Part shown: in pieces, positions 14,150-37,133 of the stretch | Layout of the letters: every line of letters starts with the position of its first letter | How positions within the stretch are numbered: position 1 is the stretch's first letter | Virus record (IMG/VR): IMGVR_UViG_3300027798_006580 | Source: a virus | Strand: one strand, 5' to 3' | Length of the DNA: 64,000 nt | The notes under the pieces: generated by a model | Told to the model about the DNA's origin: nothing | The model's input: only the letters and a program-made list of their open reading frames with translations | The model's database searches: none | Made by a program: the position numbers and the translations under genes

Positions 14150-14180
14150 AATTGACACAAATTGAAGTCTATAGTATAAT
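14150..14180 (+). promoter_or_regulatory. Early sigma70-type promoter
   Basis: TTGACA 14152-57, 17 bp, TATAAT 14175-80; AATTGACACAAATTG context. Confidence 0.8.
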
Positions 14181-14201: not shown

Positions 14202-14642
14202 GTGGTTATGATGGAATATGATGTGGACGCCGACAGTCCAAAAATTAAAAAGTTTTTGGATACGTTGATGCCGTCATTTATTAAACAGCTGGGACTGGTT
14301 AACAGCAAACGAGCGGTTCTAGTAAAAGTCACCAAAGACTTGGAAGATGATTTTCAAGGTGCTACAATGAACATAGAAATAGCAGACTGCATGATGATCC
14401 TGCTTAAACCACCAAAACGTCTTACTCCATTTACAATGATGGAAATGGCCAGTACTTTAGCACACGAAATGGTGCATGTTAAACAGTTGGCCAAAGGACA
14501 AATGAGATTCCTCCCAAATGAAGCTAGAATTTGGAAAGGTAAACGCTACAGCAAAAAAACAAAGTATTTGGACATGCCTTGGGAAATTGACGCTTTCTCA
14601 AAACAGGAACTTCTGTTACGTAGGGCAATTGACACAAAATAG
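14202..14642 (+). CDS. HExxH zinc metalloprotease-like protein
   Basis: LAHEMVHVKQ...PWEIDA motif; start possibly ATG 14208. Confidence 0.65.
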   Translation: MVMMEYDVDADSPKIKKFLDTLMPSFIKQLGLVNSKRAVLVKVTKDLEDDFQGATMNIEIADCMMILLKPPKRLTPFTMMEMASTLAHEMVHVKQLAKGQMRFLPNEARIWKGKRYSKKTKYLDMPWEIDAFSKQELLLRRAIDTK

Positions 14643-14657
14643 AAGTTAGTGTATAAT
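14627..14657 (+). promoter_or_regulatory. Early sigma70-type promoter
   Basis: TTGACA 14629-34, 17 bp, TATAAT 14652-57. Confidence 0.8.
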
Positions 14658-16050: not shown

Positions 16051-17439
16051 ATGAAATATATTAATGAATTATTTTTATCGTTGCTGGCATTTTTCTCTCC
16101 TATAGTTTATGCCACAGACACATATAATCATGTAAACAATCAACTAACTATTCCAGCGGTGTTGGTGGGAGAAATAATTTACCGTGATGTTGTTATCACA
16201 GTTGGTCCTATCTTAACTGTAGGCGGCTCTAATTTAGATTCTAAGTATCCTGCAAAACCTGGCAATACAATGGATTCTTATGACCCGTATAAAAATCAAC
16301 TTACGATTCCCAATGTAAGTGCTTATGGGTTTGTTTATTATGATGTTGTAATTAATGTCGGAACTGTACTATCAGTTAAATCCAGCGAACCTAAAAATAA
16401 AGATATTGCTTGTACAGAGCAGTCTTCACTTAATTCTTTAAATGCTGAACCGGTATATAATTTCTCAGGCTTGACAAGCAACTGGTACAACTCTAAAAGT
16501 GTGTTCGGTGCAGACTCTAGTCAAAATTTTGTAATTGCATTTTCCAATTTTTCGTCAGTTGCAAAAGAAAAAAATGATGCGGCTTTAAAATCGACGCTGG
16601 TGTCAAATCTTCATCGCTGGGCGGCAGCAGATGCATTTAAAGGCAGTAAACTATGTTGGAATCCTAGGACAGGGTGGGATTCCACATGCACTCAATGGAT
16701 AGACCCGCAGGGTAATGATTTAAGCGCCATTCAAGATAATAACTTTATAATGGAGATGGTGGAATCTATTAGGCCTTCATATAGCCTTATATCAGATTGG
16801 GCTAAAAAAAATGAGCCAACTAAACATTCCAAAATTATGAGTTGGTTGGATTTTTGGGACGTAAACACACCAGACCCGGACGATGTATTTTTTGGTCTGG
16901 GTATGGGAAGATACCATTGGGAAATAAGGCGTATTACTGACAAATCAGGCGTTGCCGCAACTACACTTCTGGTTCGTAAATTAATGCAAGGTATTTTGCC
17001 GCTGGTCAATGAGGACGGTTCTATCAAAGATAGAACAACTCGTGGAAATAGGGCTATGTGGTATCATTTTACTTCCCTCAATGAAATCATGACATCTATG
17101 TATTTGGCTAAATTGGCGGGCGTTGCAATAGATCCAGTACTGGAAAATAGATTACATAAAGCAGTAGAGATTTTTATTAATACGTTAGACGACCCATCAC
17201 ATATTGTTAAATGGGCAAAAGTTGGACACAATAACGGCGGCGACGGCACTGCACAAAACTTTAATTTTACAAACTGGTATGATGGTGCTTATGCCGGATC
17301 GTGGATCTATTTGTATGTAAATTGGTATCCTTCTAACAATAATACAGCAAGATTGTCGCAAAAGGTTCCGTTGAACTCTGCAAAATCAGCAAGTCAAGAT
17401 AGACAATTTGGTATACCTTTGGGTTGTTTACTTTTTTAA
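16051..17439 (+). CDS. Secreted polysaccharide lyase-like protein (alginate lyase family)
   Basis: Signal peptide (..VYA); duplicated N-terminal NQLTIP..V..Y.DVVI.VG module; DGS...RGNRAMWYHFTSL motif typical of PL5/PL17-type toroid lyases. Confidence 0.6.
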   Translation: MKYINELFLSLLAFFSPIVYATDTYNHVNNQLTIPAVLVGEIIYRDVVITVGPILTVGGSNLDSKYPAKPGNTMDSYDPYKNQLTIPNVSAYGFVYYDVVINVGTVLSVKSSEPKNKDIACTEQSSLNSLNAEPVYNFSGLTSNWYNSKSVFGADSSQNFVIAFSNFSSVAKEKNDAALKSTLVSNLHRWAAADAFKGSKLCWNPRTGWDSTCTQWIDPQGNDLSAIQDNNFIMEMVESIRPSYSLISDWAKKNEPTKHSKIMSWLDFWDVNTPDPDDVFFGLGMGRYHWEIRRITDKSGVAATTLLVRKLMQGILPLVNEDGSIKDRTTRGNRAMWYHFTSLNEIMTSMYLAKLAGVAIDPVLENRLHKAVEIFINTLDDPSHIVKWAKVGHNNGGDGTAQNFNFTNWYDGAYAGSWIYLYVNWYPSNNNTARLSQKVPLNSAKSASQDRQFGIPLGCLLF

Positions 17440-17489: not shown

Positions 17490-18236
17490 ATGAGCGTCAA
17501 AGACGAATTAATTAAAGAGATAGAATTACGCCTAGGTGGCGGCATGGTGGACGTAGAATTGGATTCTGCTCACTACGACTTGGCTATCTCAAAAGCACTA
17601 CGCAAATATCGTCAACGCGGTAGTAGAGCGGTTATCGAGAAGTTCCTTAAATTAAACATTATAAAAGAACAGCAAGAATATCAACTGCCGCAACAAGTAG
17701 TCAATGTTCGTGATGTATTTTTGCGAAACACAGGCTCCATGGGCATCAGTAGTACTGGTGTTGACTTTGAGCCATTCAACACAATGTATTTGAGTAACAT
17801 GTTATTGCAGAGTAACACTAACTTCTCGGGTGTATTAAACTACGAACTATATGCGGATCGAAGGGAACTTTTAGCACGTATGTTCGGAGCATACTGTACC
17901 TTTACATTTAATCCTGGAGATCGCATATTATCCATACATCGTAAGTTTAGAGCAGACGACGAAGTGTATCTTTGGACGTTTGTTGAAAAAGCTGATGACG
18001 AGTTATTAAATGACGTATATTGTGGTCCTTGGATCAAAGACTATGCCATGGCACAGGCCAAGTTTATACTAGGTGAAGCACGTAGTAAGTTTAGTACTAT
18101 TGCAGGCCCACAAGGCGGCACGAGTTTAAATGGCGATAACTTAAAATCAGAAGCAGCCACTGACATGGAAAAGTTAGAAGAAGACTTGAAACTATATGCA
18201 GACGGTAGCGACCCATTGGGATTTATAATTGGATAA
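17490..18236 (+). CDS. Neck protein (T4 gp13-like)
   Basis: LRLGGGMVDVEL start; WIKDYAMA..K..LG....KF....GP.GG.SLNG; ends PLGFIIG. Confidence 0.8.
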   Translation: MSVKDELIKEIELRLGGGMVDVELDSAHYDLAISKALRKYRQRGSRAVIEKFLKLNIIKEQQEYQLPQQVVNVRDVFLRNTGSMGISSTGVDFEPFNTMYLSNMLLQSNTNFSGVLNYELYADRRELLARMFGAYCTFTFNPGDRILSIHRKFRADDEVYLWTFVEKADDELLNDVYCGPWIKDYAMAQAKFILGEARSKFSTIAGPQGGTSLNGDNLKSEAATDMEKLEEDLKLYADGSDPLGFIIG

Positions 18237-18247
18237 GGAATAAAATT

Positions 18248-18694
18248 ATGAGAGTAGATGAAATTTTAACGGAAGAACAATTAAACGAACTTAATTGGCG
18301 TAAGGGTTTGGCCACAGCCGCATTAGGTGCTGCCGCCCTTGGTAGTATGGGCAATGCCAGTGCTAGAGTCATGCCCGGAGATGATCCAAGCATTAATAGA
18401 TTAACTGGCAAACCAAACACAGAACTATCTGTACAATCTGATCGTCCTTCACAGCCCGGCGCAGAAATGCCAAATCAAAATCTTCAAGCAGTCGATCAAG
18501 TTGATCGAACAGATGCTGGTATTACAATTACTCAAGGTGGAAAGACCTATGAAGTTAAAGTAATGTCAAAAGGTGGTCCAACACCACGTGGCGGAAAAAT
18601 GATGAAAGTACATCAAGCGCAAGTGGGAGAACGCGGTATAGGAAATTATGTTGTATATTTAATGCCCAATGGTGCGGCATATCTTTACAAATGA
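18248..18694 (+). CDS. Cassette A: putative virion-packaged protein with internal Sec signal
   Basis: MRVDEILTEEQLNE leader followed by WRKGLATAALGAAALGSMGNASA. Confidence 0.65.
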   Translation: MRVDEILTEEQLNELNWRKGLATAALGAAALGSMGNASARVMPGDDPSINRLTGKPNTELSVQSDRPSQPGAEMPNQNLQAVDQVDRTDAGITITQGGKTYEVKVMSKGGPTPRGGKMMKVHQAQVGERGIGNYVVYLMPNGAAYLYK

Positions 18695-18752
18695 ACGAAG
18701 TAGATAAACTACGTAAACTTGCAGTCGTTGACCCACATTTATAATTGGATAA
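18691..18752 (+). repeat. Chimeric junction 1 (5' end of 21590 gene + 3' end of neck gene)
   Basis: ATGAACGAAGTAGATAAACTACGTAAACTTGC matches 21590-21621; GACCCA and ATTTATAATTGGATAA match the neck gene end (last 16 nt identical to 18221-18236). Confidence 0.85.
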
Positions 18753-18770
18753 AAAAATAATAAATTAAAT

Positions 18771-19688
18771 ATGACACAGCCTTTGCAACTAAATTTAATT
18801 GGGTTAACTTTAGCTCCTGCACAATGTGTATATGATATCGTATTAGAAACTACAGTAAACAATATAGTTTTAAAAGTTATAAATGAAAAATTATTAAATT
18901 CAGATACATTGATATCTGATTATATCACTGCATATCGGCAATGGATAACTAATAGCAGTATTAATAAAATAAATGGACTTGAAAAATTTACTACAGCGGC
19001 ATATTCTAACGGAACATCTGAAGCATTTGACAAGTTTTATTTAAAGCATAGTACGAGAAAATTTCGATGTTTTAGAGGAGAATATCTATATCATAGATTA
19101 TCATGGGAAACAAGATTTGAATGGTCATACTTAGACGCCGCCGAGTTATCTAGTAACGATGCAGTAGTAGTAAGTTTACCTTTTGCAGACACTGGCAATC
19201 AACATCATTTATATAACAGGGAATTTTTAGACAAATGTTATTCTTTAAATATACCAGTTCTGCTTGATTGTGCTTTTTTTGGTATATGCGGTAATTATGA
19301 TTTTGATTTTACTCATCCAGCAATTACTGACATTTGTTTTAGTCTCAGTAAGAGTTTTCCAGTTAACAACTTTAGAATAGGCATTAGATTCACTAAAGTG
19401 AATGATGGTGATAGTTTATTAGTATATCATAATGCAGGATATATCAATAAATTAAGTGCGGCTATTGGATTAGAATTATTAAAAATACAAAATGCAGATT
19501 ATGTGTTTAATAGATACAGAAATCAACAATTAGAATGGTGTAAACAATACGACTTAGAAGCAAGCTCTACAGTTATTTTCGGACTAGATAAAAAAGAATT
19601 ATACAGTAAATATAATAGAGGAATGAAAGGTAATAATAGAATTTGTTTTGCTAAACATTTTAATAATAAACCATTACCTAAGATATGA
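18771..19688 (+). CDS. Cassette B: PLP-dependent fold-type I enzyme
   Basis: NGTSEAF, GEYLYH, VVSLPF, LLDCAF (PLP Asp), FSLSKSF (Schiff-base Lys), RIG. Confidence 0.7.
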   Translation: MTQPLQLNLIGLTLAPAQCVYDIVLETTVNNIVLKVINEKLLNSDTLISDYITAYRQWITNSSINKINGLEKFTTAAYSNGTSEAFDKFYLKHSTRKFRCFRGEYLYHRLSWETRFEWSYLDAAELSSNDAVVVSLPFADTGNQHHLYNREFLDKCYSLNIPVLLDCAFFGICGNYDFDFTHPAITDICFSLSKSFPVNNFRIGIRFTKVNDGDSLLVYHNAGYINKLSAAIGLELLKIQNADYVFNRYRNQQLEWCKQYDLEASSTVIFGLDKKELYSKYNRGMKGNNRICFAKHFNNKPLPKI

Positions 19689-20596
19689 CAAGCATTTATA
19701 AAAATAAAGAAATATATGACAATAAAGGCAATCATATTTATTGGGCAGTCAATGGCTATAAATTTGGAATTTTTGATTATAAACTAGCGTCGTCACAGAA
19801 TTTTATATTTGATTATATGATTCCATTGGACTTGACTTTTTCAGATTATCGAACTGAAGTTAGAAATGCATTAATTAAAATCTATCAAAAATATAAAAAA
19901 ACGTTGGCTATATGTGTTTCGGGCCGTGACAGCGAGATTATTTTAAGAGAAGCAGTCTTCTTAGGTATACCATGTAAGATATATTTTTTAGACTTTTGGG
20001 GAATAAATCGATGGATGAGAGAAGTAGTTGAAGATATATCTAAAGAATTATCAGTGGAATTAATAGTTGTTTCTTTGACAGAACAGCAGTGTATGGAAGA
20101 AGTAATATTTGAATCATATAAAATAATGTCAATTCTTAAACCCACATATCTTTGTATTCCTTATCTCTTTAAACATATTCCTGCAGAAGAATTTATTATT
20201 GCAGGCGAAGGGGATTTAGCAAAAGACAATCCCGTGTATAATAAGTTTATGTCCTCACATATAACAAATGGCATACCAATATTAAGCAGTGAGATAGTTT
20301 ATAGAATATGGGCCCAGGAAAATAAACGATATGGGGAATTTTATTTCCACAGCTCTACTCCTGAACTAATACTAAGTGCATATAATCATCCGTTGGTATA
20401 TAGAAATCCTCCGATGATTTATACCGATAAAATGTACGATCAATATTGGCCTAAATTGAAATTCAAACAAAAAACTGCTAATTTTGAAAATAGTGCAAGT
20501 ACAATAACTTTAATTAAAAAAATTCTATTGAATTTAAAAGTGCAACAAGAAAAAACGGTGGGAACATTTGTTGCACATATAAGCGTGTCTAGATAA
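19685..20596 (+). CDS. Cassette B: PP-loop ATP pyrophosphatase, asparagine-synthetase-like
   Basis: ICVSGRDSE (SGGxDS variant) and IIAGEGD; ATGA-coupled to the PLP enzyme. Confidence 0.55.
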   Translation: MTSIYKNKEIYDNKGNHIYWAVNGYKFGIFDYKLASSQNFIFDYMIPLDLTFSDYRTEVRNALIKIYQKYKKTLAICVSGRDSEIILREAVFLGIPCKIYFLDFWGINRWMREVVEDISKELSVELIVVSLTEQQCMEEVIFESYKIMSILKPTYLCIPYLFKHIPAEEFIIAGEGDLAKDNPVYNKFMSSHITNGIPILSSEIVYRIWAQENKRYGEFYFHSSTPELILSAYNHPLVYRNPPMIYTDKMYDQYWPKLKFKQKTANFENSASTITLIKKILLNLKVQQEKTVGTFVAHISVSR

Positions 20597-20607
20597 GTAC
20601 TTTAATA

Positions 20608-20673
20608 ATGAACGAAGCAGACTTGAAACTATATGCAGACGGCAGTGACCCATTGGGATTTATTATAGGATAA
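20608..20673 (+). repeat. Chimeric junction 2, an in-frame 21-aa mini-ORF MNEADLKLYADGSDPLGFIIG
   Basis: ATGAACGAAGCAGA identical to 21590-21603; 20619-20673 matches 18182-18236 at 51/55 nt. Confidence 0.9.
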
Positions 20674-20677
20674 TATT

Positions 20678-21589
20678 ATGAAAATTAATGAAATTATAGA
20701 AACACAAATAGACGAAATAGATCGTCGAGGTTTTTTACGTGGAATGGGTGCCGCTGGCGCAGCCGCCGCAGTTCCAGGTCTAGCAAAAGCGCAGAGCCAA
20801 ACATCATCACCTGCATACAAGAACGCAATAACAGATATTAAATATTATCTAAAGCCCAAGTTTGATAAATTGCCCAATCCTATGATTCAATATAAAGAAG
20901 GTATCATTATTGTTAAAATGAACGATACTAAAATAACTAGGGTAGAGATGAAAGAGTCTACAGGACTGATAGCACTAGATAATTTAATTATTCGGGTGAT
21001 TACTGCGGAGAGGACATTGCCACAAGTTCAGACATTGGAACGTACCGGTGATCATATAATGGAATTTTCTACAGATAATTTATTACCTGCGCCAGGAGAA
21101 ACACATACACAAACTTCTCAGCCACAGCAAACTTCACAGCCACAGCAAACTTCACAGCCACAGCAAACTTCACAGCCTCAACCACAGCAAGCCCAACAAC
21201 CTACACAACAGTCCCGTGGTTTTACTAGAGTAGGAAACTTTGGAGTGATATCTGGTTATAAATTGGATAATATTAAAGATAAAATTATAGAAAAACTTTT
21301 AATAAAAAATCCAGACGCCGAAGTAGATGATAATGGTCGCACATTGACTGTTAAAATACATAATCCACAAAGTAAGAATTTTGGAATGGCGTTGTATAAA
21401 GGATTATTGGGTCCTAGAGGTAGTACGATGATGGTTGTTATAAAATTTACTTTTAGTGAACGAGATAATCAAATTAGAGTATTACCGCAGTCAAACATAA
21501 TAATAACTAATGCCTTCGGCGGTGTCGATACTCAACCATTTGGTAGTTCATCTGAAATATTAGATGGATTGGAAAAGATATTCAGTTAA
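20678..21589 (+). CDS. Cassette C: putative virion-packaged protein with internal Tat signal, TonB/TolA-C-like domain and Q/P linker
   Basis: MKINEIIETQIDE then IDRRGFLRGMGAAGAAAAVPGLAKA; ITRVEMKESTGLIALDNLIIRVI..E..LP. Confidence 0.6.
   Translation: MKINEIIETQIDEIDRRGFLRGMGAAGAAAAVPGLAKAQSQTSSPAYKNAITDIKYYLKPKFDKLPNPMIQYKEGIIIVKMNDTKITRVEMKESTGLIALDNLIIRVITAERTLPQVQTLERTGDHIMEFSTDNLLPAPGETHTQTSQPQQTSQPQQTSQPQQTSQPQPQQAQQPTQQSRGFTRVGNFGVISGYKLDNIKDKIIEKLLIKNPDAEVDDNGRTLTVKIHNPQSKNFGMALYKGLLGPRGSTMMVVIKFTFSERDNQIRVLPQSNIIITNAFGGVDTQPFGSSSEILDGLEKIFS
21110..21181 (+). repeat. Coding 18-bp tandem repeat (QTSQPQ x4)
   Basis: CAAACTTCACAGCCACAG unit, four copies with minor variation. Confidence 0.9.
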
Positions 21590-21784
21590 ATGAACGAAGC
21601 AGATAAACTCAGAAAACTTGCCGGCATTGATAAAAATGCCCCTAGTCCTATTACCGGAGAGATTGGCACAGACAAAGGCGAGTACATGCGAAAGAATAAC
21701 ATTCGTCCGGGCACAGACGAATGGTTTAAGTTATGGTTTGCCAGACCAAAATTAACTGGCGAAAATCCCACTCCTAAAAAGTAA
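21590..21784 (+). CDS. Small hypothetical protein (right anchor of the cassette slot)
   Basis: 64 aa, MNEADKLRKLAGI...IRPGTDEWFKLWF. Confidence 0.7.
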   Translation: MNEADKLRKLAGIDKNAPSPITGEIGTDKGEYMRKNNIRPGTDEWFKLWFARPKLTGENPTPKK

Positions 21785-21826
21785 AATACCGTTGACAAGT
21801 AGATTTGTTTGCTATATAATATTAGT

Positions 21827-33098: not shown

Positions 33099-34115
33099 AT
33101 GGCAACATCACTAGCAGAAATCCGCGCTCGCTTACTTGAGCAAGACACACGTCAAAGCGGCACAAACAATCGCTCACAGGGCGACAATGGAATCTTTCCG
33201 TTCTGGAATATTCCCGAAAACTCAACTACAGTATTACGTTTCCTCCCAGACGGAGATGACACTAACACTTTCCCGTGGAGAGAGCGTCAAATGATCCGAC
33301 TAGAGTTCGCAGGAGTTCTGGGTGGAGACGAAAGTAAGAAAGTAACTGTAACAGTTCCTTGCATGGAAATGTGGAAAGAGACTTGTCCGATTCACGCAGA
33401 GATCCGTCCTTGGTTCAAAGATAAATCTTTGGAAGACTTAGGTCGTAAGTACTGGAAGAAAAAATCTTATGTCTTTCAAGGCTTTGTTGTAGACACAAAG
33501 CTACAAGAAGATGTACAACCGGAAAATCCAATCCGTCGTTTGATTATCAACCCAAGTATCTTTAACATTGTTAAAGGTGCGTTGATGGATCCAGAAATGG
33601 ATAATCTGTTTACAGACTATGAGAATGGCACAGACTTCCGACTAACAAAAACTACAAAAGGTCAATACGCAGACTACAGCACAAGTAGCTTTGCCCGTAA
33701 AGAACGTGGTTTGAACGAAGTAGAACTGCAAGCTATTGCAGATCACAACTTGTTTACTTTGAATGACTTTATGCCTAAAAAGCCTAGTAAAGAAGAAGTT
33801 GACATCATTTATGACATGTTCAAAGCCAGCGTTGATGGCGAGCTGTATGATCCCAAACGTTGGGGTCAGCATTTTAAACCAGCAGGTGTAAACCTTGGTA
33901 ACTTGGTGGCAGCATCAGATGTTGAAGCCGCAGAAGCAAGTTTCAAAGCACCTGCTCCGGCAGCTCGTCCTGCTCCTGTTGTGGCAGCAAAGCCAGCAAT
34001 CGTCAATGACGAAGATGACGCACCTTTTGAAACAGCTGATACAACAGCCGCTCCAGAAGGCAAAAAGAATGTCAATGATATTCTTGCAATGATTCGTAAT
34101 CGTCAGCAAAAGTAA
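33099..34115 (+). CDS. Single-stranded DNA-binding protein (T4 gp32-like)
   Basis: LRFLP, C......CPI, YWKK, G.DFRL.K......ADYS.S.F, acidic linker and tail; upstream of UvsX. Confidence 0.85.
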   Translation: MATSLAEIRARLLEQDTRQSGTNNRSQGDNGIFPFWNIPENSTTVLRFLPDGDDTNTFPWRERQMIRLEFAGVLGGDESKKVTVTVPCMEMWKETCPIHAEIRPWFKDKSLEDLGRKYWKKKSYVFQGFVVDTKLQEDVQPENPIRRLIINPSIFNIVKGALMDPEMDNLFTDYENGTDFRLTKTTKGQYADYSTSSFARKERGLNEVELQAIADHNLFTLNDFMPKKPSKEEVDIIYDMFKASVDGELYDPKRWGQHFKPAGVNLGNLVAASDVEAAEASFKAPAPAARPAPVVAAKPAIVNDEDDAPFETADTTAAPEGKKNVNDILAMIRNRQQK

Positions 34116-35004: not shown

Positions 35005-36078
35005 ATGACTAAACCATTTGACGTAAGTAAATTTAGAAAAGAAATTACCAAGAGCATTGAAGGCCTTAGCATTGGTTTTAATGATCCTACAGATTGGATC
35101 AGTACAGGTAATTATACCTTAAACTATTTGATTAGTGGCGACTTTTTTAAAGGCGTGCCCATGGGCAAGGTCACTGTGTTTGCCGGCGAGTCGGGCGCAG
35201 GCAAAAGTTATATCTGTTCTGGCAATCTAGTTCGTCACGCACAAGAGCAGGGCATTTATGTTGTGCTCATCGACACAGAAAACGCACTAGACGAAGCATG
35301 GCTACATGCACTTGGCGTAGATACAAGCGAACAAAAATTGTTAAAACTTAACATGGCCATGATTGATGACGTGGCCATGACTATTACCAAATTTGTCGCA
35401 GATTACAAAGCCATGGCAGAAGATGCTAGACCCAAGGTATTGTTTGTCATTGACAGTTTAGGCATGTTGCTAACACCCACAGACGTTAATCAGTTCCAAG
35501 CAGGTGATATGAAAGGTGACATGGGTCGTAAGCCCAAAGCACTGACATCGCTGGTTCGTAACACAGTTAATATGTTTGGTAATCTAAACATTGGTATGGT
35601 ATGTACCAACCACACATACGCAAGTCAGGACATGTTTGATCCGGACGATAAGATCTCTGGCGGCCAAGGCTTTATCTATGCCAGCAGTATTGTAGTTGCC
35701 ATGCGTAAATTGAAATTGAAACTGGATGAAGATGGCAATAAGACCACAACAGTCAATGGTATTCGCGCCAGTTGTAAGATCATGAAAACTCGTTATGCTA
35801 AACCATTTGAAAGTGTGCATGTGCAGATTCCTTATGCAACAGGTATGAGTCCTTACAGCGGATTATTTGACTTGCTGGAAGAACGTGGCAGTTTGAAGCG
35901 TGAAGGCAACAGTTATCTTTATACAACTAAAGAAGGCGAAGTCTTTAAAGCAATGCGTAAAGCATGGACCAATGAGCTTTTGGACAAAGTAATGGCAGAT
36001 ATTATGCTTAGAGATCTGACAGCAGATGTAAATATAGCAGATATAACACCTTTGGAGGAGATTGAAGATGCTTCATGA
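35005..36078 (+). CDS. uvsX: RecA-family recombinase UvsX
   Basis: ISTG..LN..ISG, GESGAGKS, DTENA, VIDSLG, NHTY, SGG.G..YASS. Confidence 0.9.
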   Translation: MTKPFDVSKFRKEITKSIEGLSIGFNDPTDWISTGNYTLNYLISGDFFKGVPMGKVTVFAGESGAGKSYICSGNLVRHAQEQGIYVVLIDTENALDEAWLHALGVDTSEQKLLKLNMAMIDDVAMTITKFVADYKAMAEDARPKVLFVIDSLGMLLTPTDVNQFQAGDMKGDMGRKPKALTSLVRNTVNMFGNLNIGMVCTNHTYASQDMFDPDDKISGGQGFIYASSIVVAMRKLKLKLDEDGNKTTTVNGIRASCKIMKTRYAKPFESVHVQIPYATGMSPYSGLFDLLEERGSLKREGNSYLYTTKEGEVFKAMRKAWTNELLDKVMADIMLRDLTADVNIADITPLEEIEDAS

Positions 36079-36337: not shown

Positions 36338-36795
36338 GTAATTGGTATAGACGTGTTACTGGCAACTTAGATGAGTTGCCAGGCTCAATAGCCTACTATG
36401 AATCTGAATTACAAGATGCTAGAATAGAAACTAGTATCAAAGGTAACTTGGAAACAAACTCTAGACTTATGCCTGGAATAGTGGAACACAGATTTAACCA
36501 ATTGCAAGAAGTTGAAGCTATACTTGAATTCCTAAACATCCAACTAAGAAAAAAACGAAGTGAGATGTTTAGGAAGTATACCGAAAATTATAATAGAACA
36601 CTCAGTGACCGTAGTGCTGACAAATATGTAGATGGAGACGACGAAGTAATTGAATGGCAAATTCTCGTAAATGAGTTTGCCATGATCCGTAACAAGTACC
36701 TCGGCATTATGAAAGCCATTGACACCAAGCAATGGCAGATTACTAACATTGTCAAACTCCGTGTAGCGGGCATGGATGACACTACTTTGGGTTAA
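36334..36795 (+). CDS. uvsY: Recombination mediator UvsY
   Basis: Helical, KYVDGD and K.WQITNIVKLRVAG motifs; follows uvsX. Confidence 0.75.
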   Translation: MSNWYRRVTGNLDELPGSIAYYESELQDARIETSIKGNLETNSRLMPGIVEHRFNQLQEVEAILEFLNIQLRKKRSEMFRKYTENYNRTLSDRSADKYVDGDDEVIEWQILVNEFAMIRNKYLGIMKAIDTKQWQITNIVKLRVAGMDDTTLG

Positions 36796-36852
36796 TTGAC
36801 ACAAATTGGATCCTTTGCTATAATACATACATAGCGAAACAAAAAGGAGTCC
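36792..36852 (+). promoter_or_regulatory. Early promoter + RBS module, copy 1
   Basis: TTAATTGACACAAATTGG...TGCTATAATACATACATAG...AACAAAA.GGAGT. Confidence 0.8.
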
Positions 36853-36855
36853 AAA

Positions 36856-37080
36856 ATGGAACTAGCAATCGGAACTAAAATTGTGTATACAAGTGCCGCA
36901 GGTACTCGCAATGCAGAAGTAGTTGGTATCAAAATTACCCCTACAGCAAAGCCTGGATTTCTTAATACTTTTGTTACACTTTTAATACCCGTACAAACAG
37001 GTGTTAAATTTGAGAATAAAATTCAAATCTGTGCTGACAATGCCAGCTTAAAAATGTTCAAAGTAGCAGTCATTAATTGA
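36856..37080 (+). CDS. Small early hypothetical protein
   Basis: 74 aa between two near-identical promoter modules. Confidence 0.7.
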   Translation: MELAIGTKIVYTSAAGTRNAEVVGIKITPTAKPGFLNTFVTLLIPVQTGVKFENKIQICADNASLKMFKVAVIN

Positions 37081-37133
37081 CACAAATTGGTTTCAGTGCT
37101 ATAATACATACATAGATTAACAAAACAGGAGTT
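37073..37133 (+). promoter_or_regulatory. Early promoter + RBS module, copy 2
   Basis: TTGACA 37077-82, TATAAT 37100-05; near-copy of the 36792 module. Confidence 0.8.

Follow-up and report, generated by a model that had tools for sequence, protein, structure and literature searches.

Cargo genes stacked between two core genes of a freshwater T4-like phage and bracketed by chimeric copies of both flanks

In a stretch of 64,000 nucleotides (nt) of viral DNA (IMG/VR record IMGVR_UViG_3300027798_006580), which we call the window, the boundary between a neck gene (17490..18236) and a small downstream core gene (21590..21784) is filled by three cargoes, A, B, and C, and both internal boundaries consist of the start of the small gene fused to the end of the neck gene. 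The order is neck gene, A (18248-18694), junction J1 (18691-18752), B (18740..20609), junction J2 (20608-20673), C (20678-21589), and small gene, all on the + strand. The source is a large T4-like myovirus of lake and freshwater metagenomes. We consider it likely that the neck/small-gene boundary is a variable slot, in which cargoes have been stacked by unequal crossover between relatives and which is resized by homologous recombination without an integrase.

The chimeric design of the junctions, which a preliminary description of this DNA had proposed, is confirmed at both boundaries. J2, here also called the J unit, opens with the 14 initial nt of the small gene and continues in frame into the 55 terminal nt of a neck-gene allele, giving a mini-open reading frame (mini-ORF) of 21 codons. 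The resident copy of this repeat is the final 55 to 60 nt of the neck gene (18177-18236), and the copy in J2 shows 92% identity over 60 nt to the resident end (18182-18236). As had been described, the two differ at four positions (18206, 18209, 18227, and 18230), all of them third-codon positions and all synonymous (p of approximately 0.002 for four out of four, with approximately 22% of random single changes there being synonymous). J1 comprises a copy of the small-gene start of about 33 to 42 nt, fused to a decayed remnant of the neck end, and forms a mini-ORF of 17 codons. The small-gene copy aligns over 42 to 43 nt at 84% identity, and the neck remnant is represented by 16 nt of exact match and a 6-nt match upstream, with indels. 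The preliminary description had called the differences of this small-gene copy largely synonymous, which holds for three of them and fails for the other three (A to V, G to V, and I to V). Its placement of the fusion points in microhomologies stands for J2, where the crossover falls inside a 3-nt AGA within a patch matching at 7 of 8 positions, and is left ambiguous for J1, where the text beyond residue 11 fits a decayed neck end approximately as well as it fits the small gene. Allowing up to three mismatches, the junction motifs have no copies elsewhere in the 64 kilobases (kb), and since the chance expectations of this search are 0.01 and 0.00, the junction repeats are real and not chance matches. 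The chimeric repeat is restricted to the slot site, which lies within a late structural operon.

The junctions also carry the translation context of the cargoes. The last codons of the neck gene form the ribosome-binding region for whichever gene comes next, and the ribosome-binding region for C correspondingly sits at the end of J2. The neck-end copies terminate at their own stop codon, 4 to 18 nt before a separate cargo start. On the other side, the stop codon of A overlaps the ATG of the small-gene copy in J1, and the same arrangement is seen in relatives that carry A alone.

The window derives from a metagenome, and co-occurrence of strains that differ in slot content is indeed observed, so that an assembler could in principle have stitched such strains into one array. 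The fusion points, however, share only 3 to 8 nt, far below any k-mer size, and the same junctions recur in at least 20 contigs from three pipelines and many samples. These contigs were located through the exact protein encoded by the second gene of B (B2). We inspected ten of them, assembled by JGI, ENA (MEGAHIT k141), and Logan from different samples, and those covering the region have the same gene order and J1 and J2 identical to those of the window; J1 is identical in eight independent contigs, and the MEGAHIT k141 contigs carrying the junctions are 33 to 68 kb long. In addition, contigs from four further sequencing runs of lake or freshwater origin, belonging to different studies, bridge J1 (e.g., 18197-19400) and J2 (20238-20821). 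Because the same junctions are obtained from independent samples and assemblers, the array is not a chimera of assembly, and this explanation is effectively refuted.

The contents of the slot in relatives were compared across 36 IMG/VR loci with the neck gene, and multi-cargo arrays were found through exact-protein look-ups and one pattern scan. Scans of IMG/VR with the two junctions and with a relaxed J pattern gave no matches, and the metagenome pattern scan gave five matches, of which only one (L076) is related. The slot is empty in approximately 14 loci, where the small gene begins at a TTG inside the last neck codons and the two core genes therefore overlap. Two loci (L005 and L007) have A alone, with 80 to 84% identity to the A of the window, seven have as sole cargo a divergent A allele (33% identical), and one (L013) has C alone. 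A and B without C occur in at least five samples (L063, L067, L068, L078, and L079), in one case on a contig of 172 kb. The full A-B-C series exists with two different A|B junctions, one of the window type and one found in L069 to L071, in which the A|B and B|C junctions are both of the J2 design with the same fusion point. Finally, L076 has A and C joined by J, with no B. One fusion point hence serves three cassette pairs (A/B and B/C in L069 to L071 and A/C in L076), and three different A|B fusion points exist. A slot with B alone was found neither in the 36 neck-gene loci nor among the members of the B2 90% cluster on contigs longer than 2 kb. Single-cassette relatives, which had been predicted, were found for A and C and, within these loci, not for B, and the states observed (empty, A, C, A-B, and A-C) show that the three cargoes do not always travel together.

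The alleles within the junctions can be followed to these relatives. The small-gene copy in J1 has the Leu-Arg codon pair of L005, which carries only A, and not the resident pair. The neck end of J2 and the 4-nt spacer before C are letter-identical to those of L013, which carries only C; this C-linked neck end and spacer precedes C in all five C-bearing haplotypes, and the J2 allele combination is present in the resident neck genes of L007 and L035. Because the junction alleles match those of single-cassette relatives, the comparison indicates that each cargo keeps the flanks that it has as the sole filler of the slot. Two proposals of the preliminary description, that the junction alleles come from relatives and that alternative slot contents of relatives were accumulated in tandem, are supported by these matches and, for the second, by the slot states as well.

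Two alternative 5' starts of the small gene are observed among the relatives. The first, a TTG or ATG with Asp-Lys-Asp after it, lies within the neck end or was copied from it, and is used where the slot is empty and, in L013 and L076, behind C; it is located at the end of the neck gene in L001 to L004, L006, L008 to L012, and others, near 1936 in L013, and near 1090 (minus strand) in L076. The other is an ATG followed by Asn-Glu-Ala and comes with A-type cargoes. Single cassettes are flanked by 5- to 6-nt direct repeats of the overlap site.

Natural pairs of haplotypes differ by exactly one repeat-bounded unit. L069 (A-J-B-J-C) and L076 (A-J-C) show 99.3% identity over 817 nt on the C side and 96% on the A side, and they are distinguished by a single unit of 1846 nt, consisting of B and one J and bounded by J. 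The difference between the window and the A-B type (L063/L067) is exactly the unit of J2 and C, with a 15-nt direct repeat of the small-gene start at its borders. This polymorphism (A-J-C versus A-J-B-J-C and A-B versus A-B-C) bears out the earlier proposal that the array expands and collapses through its repeats. The A|B junction of the A-B type equals J1 of the window minus approximately 50 nt, lost between two 4-nt repeats, and L079 carries a J1-derived junction with a decayed start codon. As a deletion derivative of J1, the A-B-type junction shows that the A|B joint of the window predates the split between the A-B and A-B-C lineages, and the A|B joint in L069 to L071 is a second, independent one. 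The A-B-C order of the window would have arisen in at least two steps, with C either added together with its own neck-end allele or lost in the A-B relatives.

We propose the following course of events for this slot, which is variable across a lineage of freshwater T4-like phages. A cargo would be expressible only if carried with a neck end on its left and a small-gene start on its right, because its ribosome-binding region lies in the last neck codons. Relatives with different cargoes would co-infect one cell, and an unequal crossover at a microhomology of a few base pairs would join the small-gene start of one genome to the neck end of the other, leaving both cargoes in tandem with a chimeric junction between them. 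The junction of approximately 70 nt and the flanking core-gene copies would then constitute direct repeats, a substrate for UvsX-type homologous recombination, which, judging from the haplotypes, may add or delete a repeat-bracketed cargo. Recombinants would survive only if they keep both the neck end, which provides the next gene with its ribosome-binding region, and the start of the small gene, which overlaps the preceding stop codon, and the constancy of the junction design may be explained by the loss of recombinants that lack either core-gene end. The window encodes a UvsX-like recombinase (35005..36078, + strand; phrog_97, E value of 3e-67) and a gp32-like single-strand DNA-binding protein (33099-34115; phrog_1192, E value of 1e-60), which are the predicted homologous recombination machinery of the phage itself.

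Several observations weigh against stacking by unequal crossover followed by repeat-mediated resizing. The neck part of J1 is short and decayed, which makes its origin less secure than that of J2. A relative carrying B alone was not found among the loci described above, so that a bracketed B intermediate has to be supposed. L076, the A-C contig, was assembled by SPAdes from short reads, is 3.2 kb long, and shares its assembly with the B-bearing L070. As the two J copies have 57 identical nt in common, this contig may conceivably reflect a collapse of the repeat; haplotype-specific single-nucleotide polymorphisms (SNPs) in the A end and in J argue for L076 as a separate haplotype. Across samples of the years 2017 to 2025, the array of the window type shows no differences, and the contigs of the four runs, in which rare forms would be invisible, showed no joint collapsed at the repeats. 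Turnover of the slot may therefore be rare. Finally, we infer from comparing sequences that relatives co-infect, that the crossover takes place, and that UvsX plays a role. Three joints in the contigs of the four runs (approximately 18100 to approximately 22310), with sides of 27 to 37 nt at 85% likeness and lying outside the repeats, were treated as belonging to other organisms.

The pair A-J-B-J-C and A-J-C can also be read in terms of circles, in which recombination between two junction repeats excises a circle of cargo plus J that re-enters another genome, by homologous recombination at J or at the core-gene ends. Cargoes would then be transferred on small circles, and not through unequal crossovers of entire genomes. 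The two haplotypes are the exact product pair expected from integration or excision of a circle of B and J, and for the promoter-early stem-loop (PeSL) cassettes of T4-type phages, mini-circles of PeSL-flanked ORFs have been shown by inverse polymerase chain reaction in RB49 and phi1 (PMC2839356). The end products, however, are identical to those of unequal crossing-over, such that sequence alone cannot separate the two, and the first joint still requires an illegitimate event. We regard such circles as possible, with the odds against them.

The tandem arrangement may alternatively have begun within one genome, by template switching or tandem duplication of the slot with its flanks, after which one of the copies was replaced by the cargo of a relative. 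Recombination-dependent replication in T4-type phages favours template switching, and both J copies in L069 to L071 share private SNPs, which fits duplication or gene conversion. Yet the neck end and spacer of J2 in the window are those of the C-linked allele found in other genomes and differ from the resident copy, and this origin needs an extra step and still ends with recombination between relatives. That no genome carries one cargo in two identical copies tells weakly against it. We thus hold an origin within one genome to be unlikely.

Cassettes have repeatedly been inserted at the same few bases where the neck and small genes overlap, and those present singly have short direct repeats on either side, as might be expected if a dedicated enzyme, such as an integrase, homing endonuclease, or transposase, inserted cassettes at a recognition site in the junction. 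However, no such gene is present in or beside the slot in any haplotype. Within the slot of the window, we detected no integrase, homing endonuclease, promoter, or hairpin, searches of the slot and flanking proteins against Pfam and PHROGs returned no recombinase families, and the gene lists of the haplotype contigs contain none within 5 kb. Nor does the junction offer an inverted repeat or a stable fold (no hairpin or fold beyond that of shuffled sequences in J1 or J2, with z of +1.5 and 0.0), and the three different A|B fusion points also speak against a fixed recognition site. Insertion by a dedicated enzyme is therefore very improbable, and unequal crossover between relatives is the reading that we retain. 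As regards transcription signals, the best promoter match overlapping J2 reaches 9 of 12 positions and none overlaps J1, the sole 12-of-12 promoter falls beyond the small gene, at 21792, neither junction has a terminator-like site, and a motif search found no T4 late promoter motifs in the slot.

Turning to the cargoes, A (148 amino acids) has an N-terminal leader and a signal peptide, and C (303 amino acids) has an A-like leader followed by a signal of the twin-arginine translocation (TAT) type (PF10518, TAT_signal). The preliminary description had taken A, B, and C as unrelated. This does not hold for A and C, since their first approximately 40 residues, a leader and then a signal or TAT-type peptide, are common to both. 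We observe that every slot protein of type A, divergent A, or C (18248-18370 and 20678-20800 in the window, and the slot proteins of L005, L007, L013, L016 to L023, and L035) opens with the same acidic leader of approximately 15 residues, which ends in Leu/Ile-x-Glu and is placed before the signal or TAT peptide. C contains an 18-nt tandem repeat (21110-21198) encoding a Gln/Thr/Ser/Pro linker, whose copy number differs between samples; products of 297 and 303 amino acids occur, and another run shows an 18-nt deletion at 21119. Neither A nor the small gene, which encodes 64 amino acids, belongs to no known family, and is present in nearly all relatives, had matches in Pfam, PHROGs, or PDB sequence searches.

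Cargo B, whose limits are set by 90% nucleotide identity to the contig L064 over exactly this span, holds two genes, B1 (18771-19688) and B2 (19685-20596), both on the + strand. It had been described as encoding two enzymes, which is plausible: the Atlas model of B1 resembles a pyridoxal phosphate (PLP) aminotransferase fold at a template modeling score of 0.94, and B2 resembles PP-loop/QueC-like viral proteins in the Atlas. Both assignments serve as leads only, B1 for a putative PLP aminotransferase fold and B2 for a candidate PP-loop/QueC-like protein. Searches of Pfam, PHROGs, and PDB sequences gave no matches for either. In IMG/VR, B2 has no relatives, and those of B1, at 36 to 54%, lie in other contexts without the neck gene, the small gene, or B2. 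The cargo is compositionally foreign, with a guanine-plus-cytosine (GC) content of 29.5% versus 39.5% for the window. L064 is a 35-kb phage contig of 32% GC with different neighbours, namely, an S-adenosylmethionine (SAM)-methyltransferase-like gene and a radical SAM gene. At the left edge of its homology with B lies a 13-nt patch matching the neck end at 11 of 13 positions, and at the right edge an 11-nt patch matching the end of A at 9 of 11. Because the edges of the homology are patches resembling the neck end and the A end, B probably entered an A-type slot from an unrelated low-GC donor like L064, via homeologous patches at both edges. In L064 (1-10921), which has the closest foreign copy of B, this copy follows the SAM-methyltransferase-like gene, with a radical SAM/B12-binding gene nearby. 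The setting suggests a donor in which B is part of a nucleotide- or DNA-modification gene set.

Mosaic joints of tailed phages arise by illegitimate recombination at microhomology, usually with replacement of a module as the outcome. The first joint of the present slot resembles them in falling in a 3-nt identity within a 7/8 patch between otherwise unrelated sequences, and differs in that neither alternative is lost, the two standing in tandem, and the scar turns into a repeat that can be used again. Among known systems, the PeSL cassettes of T4-type phages (Arbiol et al. 2010, PMC2839356; Comeau et al. 2014, PMC4122927) share with the slot that no integrase is involved, that non-core ORFs of a T4-like genome are bordered by short direct repeats, and that presence or absence in close relatives is bounded by the repeats, as we find for the B+J and J2+C units. 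A PeSL, however, is a strong sigma-70 promoter with a terminator hairpin, and PeSLs are spread over the early hyperplastic regions, whereas the slot repeat is a chimera of two coding-gene ends, without a sigma-70 early promoter or stem-loop terminator, is confined to one site within a late structural operon, and preserves the illegitimate joint from which it arose. The authors of the PeSL work also drew an analogy with integrons and showed the mini-circles (PMC2839356, PMC4122927). The slot is likewise integron-like in its promoterless cargoes, which have one orientation and a fixed site, in its repeated bracket element, and in the gain and loss of units. It differs in having no IntI gene adjacent, no attI, and no folded attC hairpins; its elements are approximately 70 nt of core-gene sequence, and they would use general homologous recombination.

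Another comparison is offered by the orphan cdiA-CT/cdiI and rhs-CT/rhsI arrays of bacteria, in which displaced modules stand in tandem 3' of a conserved gene, each with a fragment of the upstream gene that allows redeployment or deletion by homologous recombination (PMC4927057). A fragment of the upstream gene is likewise kept in the slot, where a neck-end copy precedes both B and C. In the bacterial arrays, however, the fragment is fused to the cargo frame (a toxin tip), and integrase or transposase genes are often present, whereas the slot fragments are not in frame within a cargo; they are separate mini-ORFs derived from two flanking genes, and the host of the slot is a lytic-type phage. 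In the literature on phage cassette stacking by unequal crossover, we found no direct precedent beyond the PeSLs. What the slot shows is a stacking of cassettes in which the repeats are chimeric scars of two flanking core genes, and the underlying processes, illegitimate and homologous recombination, are already known.

The affiliation of the phage follows from a single genome encoding a gp13-like neck protein, a contractile sheath, UvsX, a gp32-like single-strand DNA-binding protein, a large terminase, and a deoxynucleoside monophosphate (dNMP) kinase, as in T4-like or related large myoviruses. The nearest named phages are PA5oct-like Pseudomonas jumbo phages, with approximately 70% nucleotide identity over approximately 190 nt of the neck gene only. 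The neck gene encodes a head-tail adaptor (Ad2, T4 gp13-like; phrog_211, E value of 6e-32; PF26809, Phage_T4_gp13, on an identical product). Immediately 3' of the small gene lies a sigma-70-type promoter with a perfect 12/12 consensus (21792..21820, + strand), which marks the right-hand limit of the co-transcribed slot and is followed by genes for a deoxyribonucleotidase, the dNMP kinase, and the tail sheath.

Relatives also vary on either side of the nucleotidase gene, towards the small gene and towards the kinase gene, with inserts of 0.3 to 1.5 kb in some (L005, 5340-5620 and 6120-7640; L008, 6080-6640; L012, 8920-9490; L024, 1115-1680), and no chimeric junction repeats were found at these two sites. 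The gene 5' of the neck gene (16051-17439; 462 amino acids) has a weak alginate-lyase-like match. In many of its homologues (L003 to L007, L010, L011, L017, and L022), only the first 114 to 131 residues are conserved, so its C-terminal part is swapped among relatives, a pattern that fits a depolymerase or fibre-type module. A conserved sigma-70-type promoter occurs five times in the window (14150-14180, 14627-14657, 36792-36844, 37073-37125, and 40434-40486), with extended identical flanks (31 to 53 nt), and two of the copies lie 281 nt apart on either side of a small ORF. These copies resemble the promoter portion of PeSL cassettes and may indicate where the early hyperplastic regions of the phage lie.

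A more far-reaching reading, which we put forward as speculative and rather unlikely, is that the chimera of approximately 70 nt acts as a self-propagating linker. Cargoes bounded by J, possibly as circles, would circulate among co-infecting lake phages by UvsX-type recombination only, leader-tagged exported or ejected proteins would be stacked for host takeover or exclusion, and the in-frame mini-ORF would couple the translation of the cargoes. If true, such a linker would make the slot a natural integrase-free, integron-like system within a late structural operon, with an open-ended array.

For stacking by unequal crossover, the arrangement suggests a rule: where overlapping core genes supply the translation signals of a slot, selection would retain both of their ends, and repeats would arise automatically. 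Engineered T4-like phages could also be given expandable cargo sites of this design. The ways in which lytic phages acquire, retain, and exchange accessory genes without the enzymes of mobile elements have so far mostly been inferred from pairwise comparisons. Here, one locus displays a near-full series of states, with none, one, two, or three cargoes, and its junctions preserve both the crossover points and the alleles of the donors, so that the steps of stacking and loss can be read directly and are testable in natural populations.

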